Under the pieces are notes generated by a model that was not told the origin of the DNA, ran no database searches, and worked only from the letters and a program-made list of their open reading frames with translations. From Giardia intestinalis (Eukaryota), in the NCBI GenBank assembly GCA_000002435.2, contig CM018793.1: 64,000 nt of DNA; one strand, 5' to 3'. A program made the translations under genes and the position numbers. This document shows, piece after piece, positions 13,101 to 28,533 of this stretch; position 1 is the stretch's first letter; each line of letters opens with the position of its first letter.

Positions 13101-14188
13101 AAGAAGACGATGGAACTGTGCCCCTGTTCGAACGAACGTATCAGCCCATCAACGCTGCATCCCGCAAGCCAGGGTGCACGGACATGACTCTGCCATATAT
13201 AGAGCAGCCTACAAGTGCGCCATCCTTATTTCAACGGACGATGATGGGTCGGCATCTCAGTGGCATGCAGTTTAAAGAAGACATGTATGACTACACCGAG
13301 TCCGGTTGTGCTCCGCCGTTTGCACCCGATATCGGCTCAGTAGCCTCGACCGTCACCGCTGAAGTCAGCGCACGAAATGCCCAGAGGACCAAGCCCCTCC
13401 CGCAACCAAATCGGAAAGAGATACGTACTTTCTTTGATGACCGTGCCATCAACACTGCCAATCCACAAACACAAGTATTTAAGATGCAAAGCATTGAGAC
13501 AGACTCAAGTCTGAAAGTGGACGGGGCAGTAGCTTCTGCACAAAACATCGCCTCCTTATTCACTCTCAACACAGACAAAAGCCAGAAGCTGAACGCTGCT
13601 TTAGTAAAGCGTGACTTGGCACGAAGGAATGCTGATGCCAAGGTTATGAGCTCAAGTGGACTTGATGAGTCTACCCTGCCAGACATAGACCTTGGCGCCG
13701 ATAAAGCAGCAGCTCTCAGTACAGCATCTCCCTCAAGGCTAGATGGCGACTCTGCTGTCACTGAGCAGATGACCCCCCTGATTGCACAGGCGGATAGAAC
13801 TGTTGCTTTGGCTGGAATGACAAGATCTGTCATATCTGAGTATAAGAGCCATGCATCTGAGTTCCAGCAGGAGCGATTAGCCAGCTCAGTGTTTGGTAGA
13901 CCCGCCGTGTTACCAAGTATGTCTTTGATTGGCAGGGAGTTAGCACGTGTCAAGGACAATAACCTACTGAAAGATCTTCAGCAAGCGAATATTTCTGTAA
14001 TCCCTTCACGGAATGCGACCGTCCCTGCTCTTACACAGCGCGATAACAATCCGACGCTGGTCAACATTGCATCCATAATGTCCCGAATGAACACGGATCC
14101 ATGTCCTCGAGAGATCACCAAGAAAGAAAAGAAAGGAAAAAAGAGCAAGAAGGGTAAGAAGGGCACGAAAGGAAGTAATAAGAAGTAG
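10196..14188 (+). CDS. Hypothetical protein of about 1330 aa, with acidic and coiled-coil segments and a lysine-rich C-terminal tail.
   Basis: The ORF 10091..14188 has a GTG start. The first ATG is at 10196 (MLAGEADTQQ...). It ends in the tail ...KKEKKGKKSKKGKKGTKGSNKK. It is transcribed divergently from the 6750..10043 gene across a spacer of about 150 nt. Confidence 0.6.
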   Translation: MLAGEADTQQAASVAEMLPPNLGKIIRQSQQDTQESRVRSRPSSTRQGFVVAEQRLRENADYRVLCGICRRWGDREHLNAHDGFTPQLKLSGSSGFNCQTKIGRARTARMIETIILHLPVSLTECLSICHDSVDWVAGRIADSCRYFESWFPASFMALINEKAEMMGREKLLLPQDSPEDVRDDEDWSIDINTGRAQSKKWSKELYSGAKTPSIDFYDDTEDISARDLLAKLTAEQASQEQQANQIVKPHVYHQARSRPGFSYNFVDRTKDFYLNSRCPHGEAQQILSDAANEAIYGARQPILNHTPMRPASQQLTRAEQIIYKTVYSKPTRIIDQAPKNIKPLTAPYTSSLDAARHRYELYKNILASGDRQVNTAGRTFRSMNSSSVRLAEEALHLNELEAEIKMNVKAYHEGRVRAKSVHGTMVESRRYGATGFKEVQMGRGVVVVPDYFTPQTRRHTKALYEQYNNEYDFSTTEIDQPDELLDFNEDFTGLGIAKLNQSKLRALAGIVTSPKYAETEEGADGAQGDESDNDLEDSDDSVDKAKKRSMGKNGISAANAFIYRKAIAEYVTSQVNLPQYDNKLQPMIFPQDTEKSGAFYSSPQQSMAAAGDLKTKDLLSGGKHGFDPRLYQVLDASKNILNNEDLLLDSDSEDNLGRRPAKALPDQHLYEDLYLDSDPSDPDAPAQEDKIEAPELSFVRESVILEGVRDTLAPIADIAKDPKGLLITPDPVGPLIMKQAASMKAKAIKAEVAAREEQAALAAKLAREKARKAAEANEKTKNSKGTKAPKVKKQSQGPSVTDTMSKYTASGAPVSYETMAADTYKAAAIVEELAQNAEAVRSLADAEIERSKQREEAFVEKQRVEMRKTAAFNGLTEACKKVAERTGDLNSMRTAGITHVAKAHLGNTVFYKPGLEKYERQRLSDEEAEDNSAIITKIDLSLKPYLYDNSKTLEKLSKITEITSTPLRKEDDGTVPLFERTYQPINAASRKPGCTDMTLPYIEQPTSAPSLFQRTMMGRHLSGMQFKEDMYDYTESGCAPPFAPDIGSVASTVTAEVSARNAQRTKPLPQPNRKEIRTFFDDRAINTANPQTQVFKMQSIETDSSLKVDGAVASAQNIASLFTLNTDKSQKLNAALVKRDLARRNADAKVMSSSGLDESTLPDIDLGADKAAALSTASPSRLDGDSAVTEQMTPLIAQADRTVALAGMTRSVISEYKSHASEFQQERLASSVFGRPAVLPSMSLIGRELARVKDNNLLKDLQQANISVIPSRNATVPALTQRDNNPTLVNIASIMSRMNTDPCPREITKKEKKGKKSKKGKKGTKGSNKK

Positions 14189-20338: not shown

Positions 20339-21577
20339 TTACTCGAAAAGCGAACACAGTGCAGCATAGTTAGGGTCATCTGCATTCCTTTCGGCGGCGC
20401 CAGGTTCAAAGATAACCGCCTTAAAGACGTCCTTCTTCACTCTGAAGGGGCCGTCGAGCATAGAAAGTAGCGCGGAGCAGCATGCCTCGCGAAATGCATC
20501 ATCTGTGTGGGAGAGGCCTGTCCTGAACCCGGCGACGACATGGGCCATGTTCTCATCGAACATGAGGGTGTTCCACACGGAGTGCACTGCTGCATTTGAG
20601 GAGCATATGCGCCCGAATGCCAAGGCTGCTGTACTTGCAACATGTGTATTGAAATCACCAAACAAGATGATAAGGTTGCGTGGCAGAGTCCCTGTACTGA
20701 AGCTTAGTGATGACGAACTATCAAATAGAATAACAGAGTCAATGAACGTGTTCATCTCAACGACAGAATCCTCTACCAGGTGTAGCCCGTAATCCGAAGA
20801 CACTATAAATATATCGTATGTGCGTTTGAAGAGATCTAAAAACGTGTTTGGAGCAGTATCGATTATAAGGTCGAAGGCATCCCTACATGTTACTGAGATG
20901 TTGTAGACCGAGGAGACAACATATTTGAGGATCGTTATCTGCTCTTGAACTGCTTTGTGCTCTGGAAGGGTGGTGTGTACCACCCTTTTATTCTCTAACT
21001 GAGCTTGGAGACGAGTGAACTTATTCAAGATAGAACCGATATAGTCTGTGCCAGCACGCACTATGTTCTTTTCGTACCCTTCTAAGAGCTTCGAGACACA
21101 CGAAATCTCATACGTGATTTTCCACAGGCGTGGAAAGTTGGTCGCGTGGTTCAGAAGAAACACTAGTATGGTATCTAACTGCTCCAGGGGCAAAGACTCC
21201 AGCGTGGACACTCCGGCTCGCGTGTCTACAAGCTTCGCAAGAGCAAAAACAACCATATCTGTCCAGTGATGATCGGCTTCGTTATTCTTACCATTCACAC
21301 ACTCCTCAAAGAACTCTGTGATGCACGAAAATAGCCGCATGTCCTTCCAAAAGGCATGCGCAGCTAAGGGTATAGATGTGTGATTAGCAAGTTGATTGAA
21401 CGCCTCAGTGAGCGCCTCTGGTGTACTCTTTCCTTCGCGATACTTTGTTATTTCGGAGCAAAATTTGGTGTAGAAGAATTCATCGCAGGGGACAGAAAAC
21501 ATGGTGGGGTCCTGCGGTCGTGGGTTTTCTTGTGCATTGCGACCATAGAGAAAGTCCAGGGTATCTCTCCAGCTCAT
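20339..21577 (-). CDS. Hypothetical protein.
   Basis: Track ORF 20339..21637. If the start is the ATG at 21637, the N-terminus overlaps the divergent kleisin gene by 49 nt. The in-frame ATG at 21577 (MSWRDTLDFLY...) avoids the overlap. No domain recognised. Confidence 0.45.
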   Translation of the reverse strand: MSWRDTLDFLYGRNAQENPRPQDPTMFSVPCDEFFYTKFCSEITKYREGKSTPEALTEAFNQLANHTSIPLAAHAFWKDMRLFSCITEFFEECVNGKNNEADHHWTDMVVFALAKLVDTRAGVSTLESLPLEQLDTILVFLLNHATNFPRLWKITYEISCVSKLLEGYEKNIVRAGTDYIGSILNKFTRLQAQLENKRVVHTTLPEHKAVQEQITILKYVVSSVYNISVTCRDAFDLIIDTAPNTFLDLFKRTYDIFIVSSDYGLHLVEDSVVEMNTFIDSVILFDSSSSLSFSTGTLPRNLIILFGDFNTHVASTAALAFGRICSSNAAVHSVWNTLMFDENMAHVVAGFRTGLSHTDDAFREACCSALLSMLDGPFRVKKDVFKAVIFEPGAAERNADDPNYAALCSLFE

Positions 21578-21588
21578 TATTTTCAAAA

Positions 21589-23061
21589 ATGAGCCAGCTT
21601 GAGCAAATTCTAGTAGACTGTCTTGCGCTCGCTGCACAGGACAAAATCACTGCCAAGAACTCCTGGTCTCTTCAGCTGCTGGAGAACATAGATGGCATCA
21701 TTGATTCCATGCGGCAATCGTGCGATTTTGTCTATGTATCTTCGGCCATCTCTGCGTCTGCAAAGATCTATGCAGGAAGAGTGGACTCCCTATATACTAT
21801 GGTGCGTCACACTGCTGCTGCAGGACGCGTGCATGACCACTCTCCCATGGATCTTGAGGGTGAAACAGATGCCAACTCAAGCCAGGCGCGCAGGCCCCTG
21901 GATAAGCATTCAAAGGCCACCAAGCGGGTTCCTTACAAGAATGCTGCATTAACCAAGGACTTCTCTGCCCTACAGATGAAGCCTGCCTCACGTGACGCGC
22001 TTTTCCGCTTGGACCCCCTTTACTCCCAGTTGCAGATGCAGGAGCTCACATGCACCACTAAATCGCTCCCAATCTTTGGCATGTACGCCAAACCAGCCAC
22101 CTTGTCGGTCTCCCAAGCTCTTTCTGACCGCATACTAGCCAATGTGCGACCTATAACCACACACATGATTCAAGCTGCACAGGCCTCTCTAATCGCAACA
22201 CCACTTGTAGCGCCATCTGGATCACTTGATAGATCACTTATTATGGTGAATCCTGCGATGCAGAGCCAATATGGCAACTTTTCTTCCAGGATAGAGTCTG
22301 CGGTCCACTCTGTTTCAGATTCTCTCGTACTGTCTCAGAAGCTACAGGATGATGTGGCTCGTTACGTAGAGACCTCTGATAACCTCTCTGTCACCGAAGA
22401 TCTCATAGCTGTTTCTGGCAAGAATGCACTCTGGAGTGCAGCAAAACTTCCCAAACCCCCCAAGAAGCAGCGAGTTGCTCGGCGAGCTACTTCACAGGCG
22501 TGTAAGAAGTCTCGGGCCCCCAATCCCCCTCGAGCGCCCCGCGCGCCCCGGTCGTCTTCTTTCGCTGCCCCTAAGCTGACTGATCATGCACCTTTAGAAT
22601 CTGTTGAGATTGCCTTAAGCGACTGCAGCATCAACTTAGAAGCCGATGAACTGGACTTTGATCCGCCACACACTCAAGCACTTGCAAGTTCACGCCGAGC
22701 TACACTAGACATTTCAGACTTGCACGGAAGCTCGCTTGCAGAATCGGCTCCGCCGTTCGATAACTCCGAGTACATTCTCAACATGGTCAAGACAGAAAGT
22801 CTCATTGATTCTACTCCCACAAAAGTTAACATAGCACAGCTAAAGGGGGCTATTCATAACGAGCTTACTCACCAGACCACGCTAGCAGAGGTTTTTGCTC
22901 GGCTTTCTCACATGAAGCGTCTTCCTAATGACATTACGAACAAGTCTGCAGCTGCTATTTCACTTGTCTTTAGCGCGCTTCTGCACTTGGCATCTGAAGG
23001 GCACGTTGGATTAGAATGTCGTCAAGATGACATTAGTATTATTCCTCAGCAAGCAATCTAG
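21589..23061 (+). CDS. Kleisin, condensin non-SMC subunit CAP-H/Brn1-like.
   Basis: The N-terminal kleisin motif resembles CAP-H: KITAKNSWSLQLLENIDGII ... ISASAKIYAGRVDSLYTMV (compare CAP-H KITTKNAFGLHLID ... ASTKIYAVRVDAVH). The C-terminus has a winged-helix-like stretch, TLAEVFARLSHMKRLPNDITNKSAAAISLVFSALLHLASEGHVGLECRQDDISII. The track ORF starts at 21421, an upstream alternative start. The first plausible ATG is 21589 (MSQLEQILVD...). Confidence 0.5.
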   Translation: MSQLEQILVDCLALAAQDKITAKNSWSLQLLENIDGIIDSMRQSCDFVYVSSAISASAKIYAGRVDSLYTMVRHTAAAGRVHDHSPMDLEGETDANSSQARRPLDKHSKATKRVPYKNAALTKDFSALQMKPASRDALFRLDPLYSQLQMQELTCTTKSLPIFGMYAKPATLSVSQALSDRILANVRPITTHMIQAAQASLIATPLVAPSGSLDRSLIMVNPAMQSQYGNFSSRIESAVHSVSDSLVLSQKLQDDVARYVETSDNLSVTEDLIAVSGKNALWSAAKLPKPPKKQRVARRATSQACKKSRAPNPPRAPRAPRSSSFAAPKLTDHAPLESVEIALSDCSINLEADELDFDPPHTQALASSRRATLDISDLHGSSLAESAPPFDNSEYILNMVKTESLIDSTPTKVNIAQLKGAIHNELTHQTTLAEVFARLSHMKRLPNDITNKSAAAISLVFSALLHLASEGHVGLECRQDDISIIPQQAI

Positions 23062-23416
23062 CTTGATCTGCAGATCCTACGAAAAATCAATGCAACCACG
23101 TGGCTATCGTAGGTTGTCTTCGCTCAAGTTGAACCCATGTACATAGCCTATTCTGAAATGAGGACAAGCCAACTAGCATGGAATTAGGTGTCAGCTCCAT
23201 ATGCTTCGCCGTTGGCTGATCATGGAGCCCTGAGCACGTGTAGAGCTTTTCATCGGAATCTTCTACTGCGGTGGCTTCTATAACGGTGTGCCTACTCTAT
23301 TAGCGTAGTTTCACGGAGACGCAGCAACGCTAAAGAGCACTAGACACGATAGCAGGTGCGTAGCATCACAGAATGCACGCTGTACGATGTATTAGAGCTT
23401 GGCTGTCCATCCATCA

Positions 23417-24898
23417 ATGTTACTAAAAATAACCTTGACACTTGCAATTGCACTGGCAGAGTGCCAGGAGGGATCTTTCCTCTATATGGGCAAGTGCCAC
23501 AGGAGAGAGCCCGGAGCAGGGATGCAGGCCCCAGACCCCGTCCTGTGCCCGGAAGCTGTCAGCGGACCAGGCAACTGCAAGCCCGGAAAGTGCTTTGGAA
23601 TCGGAGGTGAGGAGCTAAGCTACTGCTCGCAGTGCGCAGATGCTACCGAGGTCCCCCTCAATGGGGCCTGTGATAACTCTGAAGAAACCCAAGCATGCAC
23701 CCAGATGTCCGACGGGGTGTGCACACAGTGCGCCAAGAAGACCTTCATGTACAAGGGAGGGTGCTACTCCACGATCGGCGTCCCCGGCGTCAAGATGTGC
23801 AAGGAGGCGACAGACGGGGTGTGCACCAGCCCGGCCCCCGGATACTTCGTGCTCCCAGCAGACGACCGAGACGCCTCCCACCAGTCCGTCGTCTCGTGCG
23901 GCGACGGCGAGGGGGCACCGGGCAGAACCAAGCTCTACAAGGGCGTGAAAGGCTGTGCCGAGTGCACGCTAAGCGTCCCTGCCACGACTGCGACCTGCAA
24001 TAGGTGCACGACAAAGAACCTTAGTCCGCTGAAGGACGCGTGCTTAACAGACTGCCCTGCCGGGATGTATGCCAACAACAAGGTGTGCACCCCCTGCCAC
24101 GAGTCGTGCGCAAGCTGTAGCACTAACGCAGAAGCGTCGTGCACGGCCTGCTATCCGGGGTCTGTGCTGAGTCGGTCGTCTGGTGGCACAGGAGCGTGCA
24201 TGAAAGAGTGCACGGGAAAGTACGCAGAGAACTGCGAGGCTGGCCAGTGCACGGCCGTCGTTGGGGGCTCCAAGTACTGCAGCAGGTGCAAGGCTGGATA
24301 CGTTCCAGTGGACGGCGTCTGTGTGTCGATAACGACAAGGGCGCCGACTGGATGCACGCCGAGTGATAACAATGATGGAACATGCAAAGCGTGTACAACC
24401 ACATACTTCCTGCAATCTGGCGGATGCTACAGCGCCGGAGCCTTTCCGGGTAATACTCTCTGCTCTAGTGCTGCCAATGGAAAGTGCCAGACATGTGCCA
24501 ACGGGCAAGCAGCAGATACCACTTCGGGTTCCTGCCCGGCGTGTCCGGATGGGTGCTCAAAGTGCACGGAAAGTGCTTCTCCACAGCAGTGTTCGGAGTG
24601 CCTCCCCGGATACTACAAGTCCGGAAGTAGCTGCGTGAAGTGTGATGCTAGTGACAACGGAATAGTTGGTGTGCCTAATTGCATAAGCTGCGCCCCGCCA
24701 GCTGGTGGTAGTGGCTCTGTTACTTGCTATGTCAAAACAGATGGCACTAGTGGTGGTGATAACAACACCGGCGGAAGCACCAACAGGGGCGGCCTCTCCA
24801 CTGGCGCCATCGCGGGGATCTCCATCGCTGTCGTCGTCGTCGTGGGGGGCCTCGTGGGCTTCCTCTGCTGGTGGTTCGTGTGTAGAGGGAAGGCGTGA
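23417..24898 (+). CDS. Variant-specific surface protein (VSP), complete.
   Basis: Signal peptide MLLKITLTLAIALAECQ. Many CXXC pairs and GGCY motifs (KGGCYS, SGGCYS). A C-terminal TM helix followed by the invariant ...CRGKA tail. The ATG is at 23417; the track ORF begins at an upstream TTG. A VSP-type polyA signal follows the stop. Confidence 0.9.
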   Translation: MLLKITLTLAIALAECQEGSFLYMGKCHRREPGAGMQAPDPVLCPEAVSGPGNCKPGKCFGIGGEELSYCSQCADATEVPLNGACDNSEETQACTQMSDGVCTQCAKKTFMYKGGCYSTIGVPGVKMCKEATDGVCTSPAPGYFVLPADDRDASHQSVVSCGDGEGAPGRTKLYKGVKGCAECTLSVPATTATCNRCTTKNLSPLKDACLTDCPAGMYANNKVCTPCHESCASCSTNAEASCTACYPGSVLSRSSGGTGACMKECTGKYAENCEAGQCTAVVGGSKYCSRCKAGYVPVDGVCVSITTRAPTGCTPSDNNDGTCKACTTTYFLQSGGCYSAGAFPGNTLCSSAANGKCQTCANGQAADTTSGSCPACPDGCSKCTESASPQQCSECLPGYYKSGSSCVKCDASDNGIVGVPNCISCAPPAGGSGSVTCYVKTDGTSGGDNNTGGSTNRGGLSTGAIAGISIAVVVVVGGLVGFLCWWFVCRGKA

Positions 24899-24905
24899 CT
24901 TAGGT

Positions 24906-24912
24906 AGTGAAT
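24906..24912 (+). promoter_or_regulatory. Giardia polyadenylation signal AGTGAAT, within the VSP motif CTTAGGTAGTGAA.
   Basis: It matches AGTRAAY eight nt after the VSP stop codon. The same extended motif follows the second VSP. Confidence 0.6.
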
Positions 24913-24920
24913 GCTCTATA

Positions 24921-24978
24921 GTGTGATAGTGTGATAATGGGTGATAGGGTGATAGAAGGTGATAGAGGGTGATATGCA
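24921..24978. repeat. Degenerate tandem repeat of GGTGATAG[AG][AG], six to seven units.
   Basis: The sequence reads gtgtgatagtgtgataatgggtgatagggtgatagaaggtgatagagggtgatatgcac. It fills the 67-bp spacer between the VSP stop and the start-less VSP copy. Confidence 0.7.
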
Positions 24979-26672
24979 CAGCAGCCAGTAATGGAGTGTG
25001 TACTACTTGTAAGACAGATAACCAGTACATATTCCAGAACCCTGCTGCACCATCAGAGAAGGGAAGGGAGTGTATACTGTGCTCTGATACTACACAGAGA
25101 GACGAGGTCATGGGAGTGGATAACTGTCTCAAGTGTACGGCACCAGCTAATAATAAGGGGGTAGCTAAGTGCACTGCTTGCACAGAGGGACACTTCCTAC
25201 ACACAGATGGGACGTGCCAGGCATGCGGCACCGGTTGCTCCGAGTGCACGTCCAACACAGTGTGCACGCACTGCATGCCTGGAAGGTACCTGAAAACTGG
25301 TGGCAGCTGTGTCGATGGGAGCGGGAGCACCTGTGGTGAAAAGAAGTACCCCGATCCAACTACCAGAGAGTGCAAGGCATGCCCCGAAGCTTGCAGGGTG
25401 TGCGCGTATGACGATGTCCTCCAGCAGCCCGTATGCAGCGAGTGCGACAGTGGACAAGCAAAGAATCTTCTCAAGAAGAAGGTCGACGGGACAGCGGAGT
25501 GCGTCGATGAGAACGGATGTCCGACAGGTGAAACGCACTTTGTTGATAAAACTGCTGGAACAAAGTGTCTTCCGTGTGGTGATGAATCTAAAGGAGTGGC
25601 TAATTGTGAAACCTGTAGTGCTGCACAACAATGCACTAAGTGCCTTCCGGGCTTCTTTGAGACTAATCCGACAACATGCACCGATTGTACAGGACATTGC
25701 GCAGAGTGCGGAACAGCGGGTCAAATTGATACATGTACAAAGTGCCTTCCCGGGTTCTTCCTAAAGTCCAGCGGAGGAAAAGAGTGCGTTCTTTGCGGAG
25801 ATAGCCAAAAGGGCGGCATCGATGGATGTGATGTTTGTGAGGGAACAGAAGACGCCCTCAAGTGCACAAAGTGCAAGGTGAACTACAGACCCAGTGGAGA
25901 ACCTTCAACTGGGGTCACATGTACAAAGGCCTGTGAAGATGATACTGCGTGTGGTGGGACAGCAGGGGCCTGCGATGCTATAGTGATCGACAATGATGGA
26001 AAGGAGCTTCATTACTGTTCATTCTGTGGAGATAGTTCACAAGCTCCCATTAATGGAAAGTGTGTGGCTTCTGGTAGTTACGATAGTAATCATTGTGCTA
26101 AAGGTGTCTGTACACAGTGCACCAACAACTACTTCTTATACATGGGTGGCTGCTATAGTGTATCAGCTCAACCTGGTAACCTCATGTGCAAGACAGCAGG
26201 TAATAATGGGATATGCACAGAGGCGGCCAACAATAAGTACTTCATAGTCCCAGAGGCAAAGCCTACTCAGCAGTCCGTGCTAGCCTGTGGGAACCCCCTG
26301 GGCACACTAGTAGGCACTGGTGGTACCGCTAAGGCATACGTGGGGGTGGATGGCTGCTCCCAGTGTAAAGCGCCAACACAGATAGACACTCTTGGTATGA
26401 CCCCTGCTATATGTACTGCCTGTGACAGTGATAGGAAGCCCAACAGGGACGGCAGTGGGTGTGTGCTGTGCTCTGTGGGTGATTGCAAGAGCTGTGTGGT
26501 GGATGGTGTGTGTGGGGAGTGCAACAGTGGCTTCAGTCTAGAGGGTGGCAAGTGTGTGTCCTCTGGCACCAACAGGAGCGGGCTCTCCACGGGGGCCATC
26601 GCGGGCATCTCCGTGGCTGTGGTCGCTGTCGTGGGGGGCCTCGTGGGCTTCCTCTGCAGGGGGAAGGCGTAG
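24966..26672 (+). pseudogene. VSP copy truncated at the 5' end; no ATG and no signal peptide.
   Basis: The frame is opened by TAG at 24963. The track 'M' at 24969 is a GTG. The first in-frame ATG, at about 25113, gives a start (MGVDNCLKCTAP...) with no signal peptide. The rest has full VSP architecture: CXXC repeats, a GGCY motif, a TM helix and CRGKA, with polyA signal AGTAAAC after the stop. Confidence 0.65.
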
Positions 26673-26689
26673 GTGGCATCCACTTAGGT

Positions 26690-26696
26690 AGTAAAC
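26690..26696 (+). promoter_or_regulatory. Polyadenylation signal AGTAAAC, within CTTAGGTAGTAAAC.
   Basis: It matches AGTRAAY eighteen nt after the stop of the second VSP. Confidence 0.55.
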
Positions 26697-26914
26697 GCAT
26701 CCATGTGCCGCATCACCTCAACCGGTACACCTCACAGTGCCTCTGCCTGGACAATGGAAGAGCTACGGCGGGCTGCTCTAGCCGTTCCGTGCGCCTCTGG
26801 TAAGGGTGACGCCCCAGGCCAGCACGACTCCCTGGTATCTGAGACAGAGTGCGAGTGGCCGCTTATTCCCATCCCCCAGTCCACTCTCACCCAACATAGT
26901 CAAAATGTCCTATT

Positions 26915-27014
26915 CTTCGCGCCCTCGCGCCCGCACGTGCCCGTGGCGTAATTGGATAGCGCGCCTGACTACGGATCAGGAGGTTGCAGGTTCAAGTCCT
27001 GCCGGGTACGCTTT
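26915..27014 (+). repeat. Duplicated module of 100 bp, copy 1: a 22-nt GC-rich leader, tRNA-Arg and CTTT.
   Basis: It is identical to 35908..36007. The shared upstream 22-mer is CTTCGCGCCCTCGCGCCCGCAC. The tRNA is identical in the two copies. The flanks diverge outside this unit. Confidence 0.85.
26937..27010 (+). tRNA. tRNA-Arg, anticodon ACG.
   Basis: I folded it by hand. Acceptor stem GTGCCCG/CGGGTAC with one G-U pair. D-arm GCGT-AATTGGATA-GCGC. Anticodon stem CCTGA/TCAGG with loop CTACGGA (U33, anticodon ACG, G37). Variable loop AGGTT. T-arm GCAGG-TTCAAGT-CCTGC. Discriminator G. Length 74 nt. A TTTT run follows at 27012-27015. Confidence 0.9.
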
Positions 27015-27549: not shown

Positions 27550-28533
27550 TCACGCTGCCTTGACACGGAATCTCCCCACAACTATAGCATGATTCCTGTG
27601 GAACTCTCCTATGTCCAGCTGCTCCTTGCACTTAAAGTCGTGCTCGCGCAATGTCTCTATTTCACGCGCAAAGACGGCCTCCGGCTTCAGCGTCGAGTCG
27701 ACAGAGCTTGCCTTGATAGATATCAGCATGCCTCCATTGGCCTTCAAATAGTACCTCGCATTCTCTGCGACAATCCGTGCCTGGTCCGGCTGTGCCACAT
27801 CAGAAAAGATGCAATCGACCTCCGGGACTATCATACGATACTTGTAAGGATGCCTTGCGTCAGCAATGATGGGGTAAACGTTCGTTCTAGCCTTAGCAAC
27901 CTCAAGTAAATCGCGGCCAGACCTCTGCGAAAACTCGACGGCATAAACGGCGCCGGTAGGCCCAACTATGTCCGAAACGTGCGAGACAGTGGTCCCCGAT
28001 GCAGCGCCAAGGTAGAGGACCTTCGCCCCTGGCTTTATTGGCATGTCCAACACGTTGAGGCGGACGGCCGCGCCCAGCTTGGAGCGGAACGGGTTCCACT
28101 CACGATATTCTATCTTGGACTCGGTCCCCTCGACTGAAATGCGCTTCTCTCCGTATACGGCCACGCCTGGTGCAAGAGACTTCGTCACTAAAACATCGCC
28201 CCGTCCATGGGATATAAATATTCCATCATACTTGGGATGAGGCTTGACCATGGTCTTTGCTCCTCCCTTGAACCCGCCGCCAGGGCCCCCGGGTCCTCCA
28301 CGGCCGCCAGGCCCATCCCTTGGTCCGCGGCGATCACCCCGATCGGGGCCTCCGGGGGGGCCTGAGCCGCGCCTGTCCCCGAAGCCGCGCCCCCCGTCAC
28401 CTCTCTTGAAGTCCGGTCTCTCTGGCCTACGGTCTCCGAAGCTCCGGCCACTGTCTCGGCGATCGTTGCCCGGCCCGCGGCCTCCCGGCCCGTCACGGCC
28501 CCCGCGCCCGCTGTTTCGATAGTCTGTACCCAT
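27550..28533 (-). CDS. NOP1: Fibrillarin, a box C/D snoRNP 2'-O-methyltransferase.
   Basis: An N-terminal RGG/GAR domain ([14 protein letters not shown]...[10 protein letters not shown]) is followed by the conserved fibrillarin methyltransferase core: [55 protein letters not shown] and [12 protein letters not shown]. Confidence 0.95.

Follow-up and report, generated by a model that had tools for sequence, protein, structure and literature searches.

A two-gene head-to-tail VSP array of Giardia lamblia WB whose downstream member lacks an initiator and a signal peptide

VSP genes of Giardia lamblia occur in linear arrays described by Adam et al. (2010; BMC Genomics 11:424), in which the genes lie head to tail with spacers that range from overlapping to 241 bp, with a mean of 60 bp. 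Only the first gene of such an array has an initiator; the CRGKA-coding 3′ end and the poly(A) signal are conserved. The initiator PyAATGTT is needed for efficient expression from the VSP promoter, according to unpublished transfection data of their own that these authors cite. Downstream members never carry it, and they were hypothesised to be unexpressed cassettes, either a reservoir or discarded remnants, a reading that has been in print since 2010. A related class, the pVSPs, has lost the proper start and signal peptide, often lies "in arrays of multiple pVSPs" and has been put forward as a reservoir of variability in VSPs (Rodriguez-Walker et al., 2022; bioRxiv 10.1101/2022.03.07.483299). 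In Giardia muris, telomeric arrays of pVSPs without signal peptides consist of tandem, promoterless, 5′-truncated copies that are supposed to be donors for gene conversion. In Trypanosoma brucei, arrays of VSG pseudogenes, where the same idea of a tandem promoterless donor applies, are a more distant likeness; their role in mosaic antigen formation contrasts with the donation of array segments in Giardia lamblia, which is putative. VSP switching in Giardia is regarded as epigenetic or post-transcriptional rather than recombinational.

The DNA analysed here, which we call the window, is a stretch of 64,000 nucleotides of the Giardia genome (contig CM018793.1). An earlier note on its sequence had described a complete VSP followed after 67 nt by a second VSP open reading frame in a different frame, and all the features that it stated are present. 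The window is from chromosome 5 of Giardia lamblia WB. We conclude, with a probability of about 85%, that the two genes are a two-member head-to-tail linear array comprising vsp40 and a downstream vsp39 pseudogene or cassette that is not made as a surface antigen. The pair has been published and catalogued, a point that the earlier note overlooked, and it is an ordinary case of a known arrangement.

The upstream gene, VSP1 (23417–24898, + strand), starts with an ATG at 23417 that is surrounded by the initiator element CAATGTT (23415–23421, + strand), and ends with the stop codon TGA at 24896–24898. A regex scan of 23300–26700 found no other PyAATGTT. The product of 493 aa has the N-terminal signal peptide MLLKITLTLAIALA, where the maximum 9-residue Kyte-Doolittle mean is 2.5, and the C-terminal end ...FLCWWFVCRGKA. 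CXXC occurs 15 times in it, it has a transmembrane segment, its tail reads CWWFVCRGKA, and it matches Pfam PF03302 (VSP) with E = 3e-88. VSP1 is intact and complete: an initiator, a signal peptide, a transmembrane segment, the CRGKA tail and a poly(A) signal are all present, and the gene is expressible.

Both genes can be matched to existing records. VSP1 is exactly XP_001708541.2 / KAE8306077.1, located on the 4.02-Mb chromosome, and the downstream gene, VSP2 (24966–26672, + strand), is 100% identical from its first ATG to the 520-aa protein XP_001708539.1, a 2007 record named "VSP [Giardia lamblia ATCC 50803]". Additional file 1 of Adam et al. (2010) lists vsp40 (GL50803_137697) as the gene that comes first in a linear array, with the initiator CAATGTT (493 aa, 49.7 kDa, 54 Cys, 15 CXXC), and vsp39 (GL50803_15237) as a linear array member for which the initiator is given as "No" (520 aa, 52.9 kDa, 64 Cys, 24 CXXC). 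The lengths, masses, and Cys and CXXC counts that we computed for VSP1 and VSP2 agree exactly with these rows. There vsp39 was scored "complete" because an in-frame ATG exists. In the 2020 RefSeq annotation the gene is GL50803_0015237, a "pVSP" on NC_051860.1 (Rodriguez-Walker et al., 2022, Table S7), and this record begins "agggtgatatgcacagc", exactly at 24966 of the window. A full-text literature search found no main-text discussion of the vsp40 and vsp39 gene IDs, and the account of vsp39 by Adam et al. (2010) includes neither the tail deletion nor the comparison with isolates DH and P15 described below.

The pair is arranged as the linear arrays are, head to tail with a short spacer (67 nt versus a mean of 60), with expression signals on the first gene only, a conserved CRGKA 3′ end and poly(A) signal, and a junction common to other array members; vsp39 belongs to clade I, and there are no essential differences. 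In contrast to the telomeric arrays of G. muris there are only two units, at an internal syntenic chromosomal site. Many pVSPs are frameshifted or contain internal stops; the frame of VSP2, by contrast, is open throughout, and its poly(A) signal can still be recognised.

Each of the three frames is closed by a stop codon within the 67-nt spacer (24899–24965, + strand). The spacer contains the extended poly(A) signal of VSP1, ACTTAGGTAGTGAAT, ending at 24912, followed by degenerate GTGATAG repeats; according to TRF, degenerate GGTGATAG-like units are repeated in tandem at 24918–24974 (+ strand; period 8–10, ~5 copies). The last codon of the spacer is a TAG (24963–24965), which opens the frame of VSP2 just as the earlier note had it, in a different register from that of VSP1 (24966 mod 3 = 0 versus 2). 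From there 568 codons are open to the TAG at 26670–26672. The translation starts ICTAASNGVCT, includes ...GHFLHTDGTCQACGTGCSECTSNTVCTHCMPGR as an example of the sequence encoded by 24966–26669, and ends ...GFLCRGKA. Its match to PF03302 (E = 7e-27) is, like that of VSP1, far beyond chance, and there are 26 CXXC motifs in the open frame, 24 of them from the first ATG onward. The alignment that had been proposed for finding the point of truncation shows that about 100–115 N-terminal residues, which make up the first module and the signal peptide, are absent by comparison with full-length relatives.

The first in-frame ATG of VSP2 is at 25110–25112 (+ strand; context GGTCATGGG, not an initiator). 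It is codon 49 of the open frame, close to the 50 codons estimated previously, and the 2007 annotation began the gene here to give the 520-aa product MGVDNCLKC..., without a signal peptide. The ATGs at 24911, 24937, 24974 and 24991, none of which is in frame, give open reading frames of 5–57 codons. Scanning all in-frame Met residues of VSP2, we found no hydrophobic segment following any of them (maximum 9-residue Kyte-Doolittle mean 0.3–1.7, compared with 2.5 for VSP1), which bears out the reported lack of a signal peptide. PyAATGTT is likewise absent, the only copy in 23300–26700 being that of VSP1. We also considered a spliced 5′ exon, and rejected this because neither of the Giardia splice motifs GTATGT and CTRACACACAG occurs within 23300–25200. 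VSP2 therefore has the Cys-rich ectodomain of a VSP but neither the signal peptide nor the initiator of a functional surface antigen. It is a VSP pseudogene or cassette whose Cys-rich body is open and which retains a poly(A) signal and the CRGKA end, but it has no promoter/initiator, 5′ start codon or signal peptide.

Transcript levels agree with the claim that the second copy is not expressible as a normal secreted VSP. In strand-specific RNA-seq from a single study of few clones, the sense TPM of GL50803_0015237 was 0–2.2 in seven samples, compared with 21–34 for VSP1 (Rodriguez-Walker et al., 2022). Could VSP2 be expressed after all, either as a non-secreted, Cys-rich, membrane-anchored protein from the ATG at 25110, or off VSP1 transcripts that are read through, reinitiated or spliced? 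Most VSPs are transcribed at a low level in Giardia, and the intact 568-codon frame with its own poly(A) signal, together with the 520-aa protein called in 2007, would fit such a product. Nevertheless we regard it as very improbable. The sense signal is just 0–2.2 TPM, the initiator, a hydrophobic N-terminus at any in-frame Met and the splice motifs are all absent, the spacer is closed in every frame with the VSP1 poly(A) signal lying between the genes, and the membrane anchor is five residues short. Given the missing promoter/initiator, 5′ start and signal peptide, and the deletion in the anchor, we conclude that VSP2 is not made as a surface antigen. Low-level translation from the ATG at 25110 may be compatible with these data. 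That 568 codons are still uninterrupted, and that no Cys motif has been lost, could be due to a recent origin, to selection for a donor role, or to translation now and then.

The attribution to VSP2 of full VSP architecture with its own CRGKA and poly(A) signal was correct, but a change in the tail had been missed. Compared with the orthologous 3′ ends of DH, P15 and an independent A2-like contig (L002), 15 nt (TGGTGGTTCATCTGC, encoding CWWFx) are missing between TGC at 26655–26657 and AGG at 26658–26660, leaving a shortened C-RGKA tail plus stop (26655–26672, + strand) where the consensus end is ...GFLCWWFxCRGKA. CRGKA is kept, and the membrane anchor is five residues shorter, with 20 residues left. 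Where DH, P15 and L002 have these 15 nt, a TCTGC direct repeat lies on either side of them. The CWWFxC sequence is retained in 72 of 73 relatives ending in RGKA. We considered the deletion as a unique event, and thus a likely recombination scar; this is weakened by the FLCRGKA tail of one other WB pVSP, and the loss may instead be recurrent slippage. The extended VSP poly(A) signal ACTYAGRTAGTRAAY is represented in VSP2 by ACTTAGGTAGTAAAC at 26682–26696 (+ strand), soon after the stop codon, and Table S6 of Rodriguez-Walker et al. (2022) includes the motif for GL50803_0015237. Starting at this signal, the 3′ flank has its orthologue in that of the single syntenic VSP in DH and P15.

The truncation of VSP2 is not specific to this gene, which the earlier note had not recognised. 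Its truncation point and the spacer constitute the canonical, conserved junction between units of VSP arrays rather than a private accident, because near-identical sequence is found at two successive junctions in the independent assembly of another isolate (L015). These align almost base for base with 24899–25010, the GTGATAG-type repeats recur there, and the reading frames that follow (P0040 and P0099) start MICTAASNGVCT. The junction has the form ...AGTGAATGCT...GTGATAG repeats...|GTG ATA TGC ACA GCA GCC, the last part corresponding to ICTAASNG; the module sequence is GGTGATAGAGGGTGATATGCACAGCAGCC and variants. Three WB proteins of other array members (P0005, P0018 and P0025) start MLYSDSDS, with an ATG inside the upstream poly(A) signal and the GTGATAG repeats read in frame as SDSDS; the counterpart of this ATG in the window is that at 24911. 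A search of JGI metagenome contigs with a junction 29-mer gave 0 matches. VSP arrays propagate in tandem units, each made up of a body without a signal peptide, a tail, a poly(A) signal and a spacer.

These junctions also bear on whether the arrangement is an artefact, in which the assembly merged two VSP repeats into one and so dropped a real ATG and signal-peptide region; such an error had been named as what would overturn the earlier reading. VSP arrays are notoriously difficult to assemble (Adam et al., 2010), and WB-like short-read contigs (L003–L010) break at about 26950–26985, in a tRNA-Arg repeat, short of the junction. Against this, the protein recorded in 2007 matches along its 520 aa at 100% identity, the pair is a linear array in the table of Adam et al. 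(2010), built on the 2007 assembly, and the 2020 long-read RefSeq pseudogene record opens with the same 74 nt as 24966–25039. The stop-spacer-ICTAASNG junction is moreover present twice in L015, and such genes sit within large contigs with no sign of mis-assembly (Adam et al., 2010). An artefact is extremely unlikely.

We located the syntenic loci of other isolates via fibrillarin. A single VSP lies between Cnd2 and the 167-aa gene/fibrillarin in DH (L001, A2), in L002 and in P15 (L012, E). Exact-protein look-ups found no contigs encoding exact VSP2 (520- or 567-aa version) or VSP1 (493 or 499 aa). WB and DH are 97–100% identical up to about 24050 and ~55% identical beyond; they are homologous again in the tail of VSP2 and in the 3′ flank. 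The syntenic VSP of P15 is only 34% identical to VSP1, and tblastn found no VSP2-like remnant in the 1-kb gap beside it. Another P15 VSP on the same contig as fibrillarin (P0011) was rejected as the syntenic copy, lying some 50–60 kb away.

What kind of event might separate WB from these isolates? In the WB lineage, recombination or gene conversion would have brought array-type sequence, including one junction, into an ancestrally single-VSP locus, with the 3′ tail and flank of the former gene remaining joined to the cassette VSP2. Tentatively, and with less than even confidence, we suggest that the tract of this event in WB (A1) spanned an array junction, copying the 3′ part of one unit, the spacer and the signal-peptide-less next unit into a single-gene VSP expression site. 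No recent donor for the 3′ half of VSP1 or for VSP2 (24160–26657) was found, the best non-self relatives being 62–70% identical; a two-gene ancestor is therefore possible, the downstream cassette having disappeared from DH and from P15, in each case through recombination between conserved 3′ ends. Unequal recombination at the ends coding for the transmembrane segment and CRGKA would give a VSP1-like gene with the 3′ flank of VSP2, as in DH, and VSP loci turn over fast, as the divergence of the P15 gene illustrates. However, if the pair were ancestral, the cassette must have been lost twice independently, in A2 and in E, or else once with a replacement in addition. The DH gene differs from VSP1 across the whole 3′ half (~55% identity), so a simple deletion provides no explanation. 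In addition, the 3′ UTR of VSP1 and the spacer are of array type, common to array pVSPs (Table S6; L015), which fits import from an array. We consider an ancestral pair unlikely on this evidence.

If import into a single-gene site is correct, the locus would be a direct record that sequence passes, in Giardia lamblia, between silent arrays and VSP loci competent for expression. The GTGATAG spacer/ICTAASNG junction would be a traceable marker of such exchange, and recombination, beyond epigenetic switching alone, would help to determine which VSPs can be expressed, even over short (sub-assemblage) spans of time. For the pair itself the analysis adds little beyond confirming the annotation, the downstream copy being a recorded pseudogene. 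Its added value is comparative, in the conserved junction module as a marker, the absence of the cassette at the syntenic locus of two other sequenced isolates, and a tract shared with an intact VSP. These points could aid tests of VSP diversification by segmental gene conversion from silent arrays.

The suggestion that the second copy is a pseudogene, kept as a reservoir or left as a remnant, is supported by the missing initiator, signal peptide and splice motifs, by the low sense TPM, by its RefSeq pVSP status and by Adam et al. (2010). A reservoir function of VSP2 may be hypothesised purely from mosaic patterns, whereby cassettes of this kind would exchange sequence tracts with expressed VSPs. 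One such pattern is seen in a sliding-window comparison of VSP2, where 25170–25560 (+ strand; ~400 bp) is 95–100% identical in DNA sequence to another VSP (L013/P0002), and the flanks are 45–70% identical, a mosaic typical of gene conversion. That VSP, from gut-metagenome Giardia, is intact, with both an initiator and a signal peptide.

The VSP pair lies on the plus strand at window 23417-26696, in the arrangement described in the earlier note. The first gene, VSP1 (vsp40), extends from the ATG at 23417 to the TGA at 24896-24898 and encodes 493 aa, with N-terminus MLLKITLTLAIALA and C-terminus ...GFLCWWFVCRGKA. It matches the VSP family PF03302 in Pfam with E = 3e-88, and corresponds to XP_001708541.2 / KAE8306077.1, encoded on the 4.02-Mb WB reference chromosome, where it neighbors fibrillarin (KAE8306079.1). 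A spacer of 67 nt (24899-24965) with stops in all three frames separates it from VSP2 (vsp39), whose frame (24966-26672) is in a different phase. This frame is opened by a TAG (24963-24965) and runs for 568 codons to the TAG at 26670-26672, ending ...GFLCRGKA, with an extended VSP poly(A) signal, ACTTAGGTAGTAAAC, at 26682-26696. VSP2 also matches PF03302 (E = 7e-27), and is only ~33% identical to VSP1; no other ORF in the window ends in CRGKA.

The claim that VSP2 lacks a normal start and a signal peptide is borne out. The first ATG in its frame is at 25110, and no hydrophobic stretch was found after any in-frame Met. The ATGs at 24911, 24937, 24974 and 24991 are out of frame with VSP2 and open ORFs of 5-57 codons. 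The initiator motif occurs once in 23300-26700, at 23415. A spliced upstream start was also considered; neither a Giardia 5′ splice site (GTATGT) nor a branch/acceptor motif (CTRACACACAG) is present in 23300-25200.

The start of VSP1 itself is modeled differently between records, and VSP start-site annotation is therefore inconsistent. Automatic gene callers use an upstream TTG for VSP1 orthologues (window 23399-23416; position 13392 of the DH contig), giving 508 aa in DH and an equivalent of 499 aa in WB; the 2007 RefSeq model has 470 aa. None of these models begins at the CAATGTT initiator, as the 493-aa one does.

The pair is already known. It forms two adjacent rows in Additional file 1 of Adam et al. 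2010 (PMC2996952), where vsp40 (GL50803_137697) is a clade II gene, first in a linear array on chromosome 5, with initiator CAATGTT, 493 aa, 49.7 kDa, 54 Cys and 15 CXXC, and vsp39 (GL50803_15237) is a clade I linear-array member with no initiator, 520 aa, 52.9 kDa, 64 Cys and 24 CXXC. Six of these numbers were recomputed from the window and matched exactly. From Met-49, VSP2 is 100% identical to the 520-aa XP_001708539.1, 'VSP [Giardia lamblia ATCC 50803]'. Rodriguez-Walker et al. 2022 (bioRxiv 10.1101/2022.03.07.483299) list GL50803_0015237 on NC_051860.1 as a 'pVSP', with a sequence starting agggtgatatgcacagcagcc... that corresponds to the window from 24966 onward. VSP2 is therefore an annotated pseudogene.

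The pair is typical of a class already described in the literature. Head-to-tail 'linear arrays' contain more than half of the WB vsp genes; the mean spacer is 60 bp, and neighbors range from overlapping to 241 bp apart. The PyAATGTT initiator is often on the first member and on no downstream member, and the downstream members were hypothesized to be unexpressed, serving as recombination cassettes or being discarded remnants (Adam et al. 2010, PMC2996952). In the 2022 study, pVSPs are recognized by a lost ORF, start or signal peptide; many of them are placed 'in arrays of multiple pVSPs', and they are proposed to act as a reservoir (bioRxiv 10.1101/2022.03.07.483299). Our additions are minor: the junction module is conserved, DH and P15 lack the cassette, and VSP2 carries a tail deletion and a mosaic tract.

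The earlier note called for an RNA-seq check. In the strand-specific data of the 2022 study (bioRxiv 10.1101/2022.03.07.483299, Table S9; uniquely mapped TPM, 7 samples), GL50803_0015237 has sense values of 0.78, 0, 1.17, 2.14, 0.75, 0.38 and 2.22, and antisense values of 11-73; sense TPM for VSP1 (GL50803_00137697) is 21-34. There is thus essentially no sense transcript of VSP2, and together with the pVSP listing this supports the earlier note's view of a probable pseudogene that is not expressed as a normal secreted VSP. An antisense ORF of 374 aa (24557-25681, minus strand) spans the VSP1/VSP2 junction. The antisense signal might bear, for instance, on RNAi-type VSP silencing.

Alignment with full-length relatives (P0002, P0004, P0016 and others) places the start of VSP2 at the conserved ...PGSxICTAASNGVCTTCK, so that 100-115 N-terminal residues, comprising the signal peptide and first module, are missing. 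A contig of another Giardia isolate (L015; ENA ERZ27316335) contains two consecutive junctions of the form CRGKA-stop, ACTCAGGTAGTGAATGCTATACAATGTGTGATAATGGGTGATAGAAGGTGATAGAGG | GTGATATGCACAGCAGCCAGTAATGGAGT..., with both of which window 24899-25010 aligns nearly base for base; its ORFs P0040 and P0099 begin MICTAASNGVCT. Three WB array members of the 2007 annotation (P0005, P0018, P0025) begin MLYSDSDS..., from an ATG within the poly(A) signal of the upstream gene with GTGATAG repeats read in frame. The counterpart ATG at 24911 yields MLYSVIV-stop, and TRF detects a degenerate GTGATAG repeat at the VSP1/VSP2 junction. The matching L015 junctions and the MLYSDSDS starts indicate that the repeat and truncation point form the canonical boundary between units in VSP arrays; judged by these alignments, the N-terminal cut is shared and not private to VSP2. 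VSP arrays propagate as units already without a signal peptide. An assembly error at the junction is unlikely, since the arrangement fits the 2007 protein record and the 2010 linear-array listing, the 2020 pseudogene record carries the same junction sequence, and the independent L015 assembly repeats it.

The syntenic loci of DH (A2) and P15 (assemblage E) were located through fibrillarin. DH has one 508-aa VSP between the Cnd2 gene and a 167-aa gene/fibrillarin, and in P15 the corresponding slot holds one VSP of 480 aa. The independent A2-like contig L002 has 100% identity to the DH allele across its terminal 357 nt. As the condensin Cnd2-like gene (21421-23061, plus strand) and fibrillarin (27550-28533, minus strand) are syntenic in WB, DH and P15, the VSP slot is at an internal, conserved chromosomal position, and is not subtelomeric. 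WB and DH share 97-100% identity from upstream of VSP1 to ~24050; identity is patchy to ~24170 and stands at ~55% over the rest of VSP1. High identity (97.6%) returns at the VSP2 3′ end and continues through the flank, which is homologous to the 3′ flank of the P15 VSP. In contrast, the VSP1 3′ UTR and spacer are of array type, and their GACTTAGGTAGTGAATGCTC also follows several array pVSPs (Table S6, bioRxiv 10.1101/2022.03.07.483299) and occurs in L015.

We infer, as the preferred reading, that recombination or conversion in the WB lineage introduced array sequence with one junction into a locus that held a single VSP, whose old tail and flank would have stayed joined to the cassette. No donor for the WB array sequence was found, the best non-self relatives being 62-70% identical. 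The polarity may also be the reverse, with DH and P15 having lost the cassette.

Several features of the flank were also seen. P15 has ~0.9 kb extra (L012 11621-12552) separating its single VSP from the flank common to WB and DH, with no detectable similarity to VSP2 or window 26703-26914. Two plus-strand tRNA-Arg(ACG) genes lie ~9 kb apart (26937-27011 and 35930-36004); the first, ~265 nt 3′ of the VSP2 stop codon, overlaps a repeat of 100 bp (26915-27014) that has another copy at 2527-2626 of the DH contig. WB-like short-read assemblies break in this region, at ~26950-26985.

Within VSP2, window 25170-25560 has 95-100% DNA identity to the equivalent stretch of L013/P0002. This intact VSP comes from a human-gut metagenome and has a CAATGTT initiator and signal peptide; the sequence flanking the tract is just 45-70% identical to that gene. 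Boundaries this sharp point to segmental exchange of cassette-type with intact VSPs, which may have run in either direction, and so bear on the reservoir idea.

The earlier note missed that VSP2 lacks five residues (CWWFx) directly before RGKA, a gap of 15 nt between 26657 and 26658. In DH, P15 and L002 the corresponding 15 nt are bordered by a TCTGC direct repeat, and CWWFxC is kept in 72 of 73 RGKA-ending relatives. A second WB pVSP (325 aa, MYKGECYKDS...; Table S7, bioRxiv 10.1101/2022.03.07.483299) ends ...VAGLVGFLCRGKA, with the same deletion and FLCRGKA tail. The VSP2 deletion may thus not be a scar of the junction: its sharing suggests that slippage has recurred at the TCTGC repeat or that gene conversion has spread the deletion.
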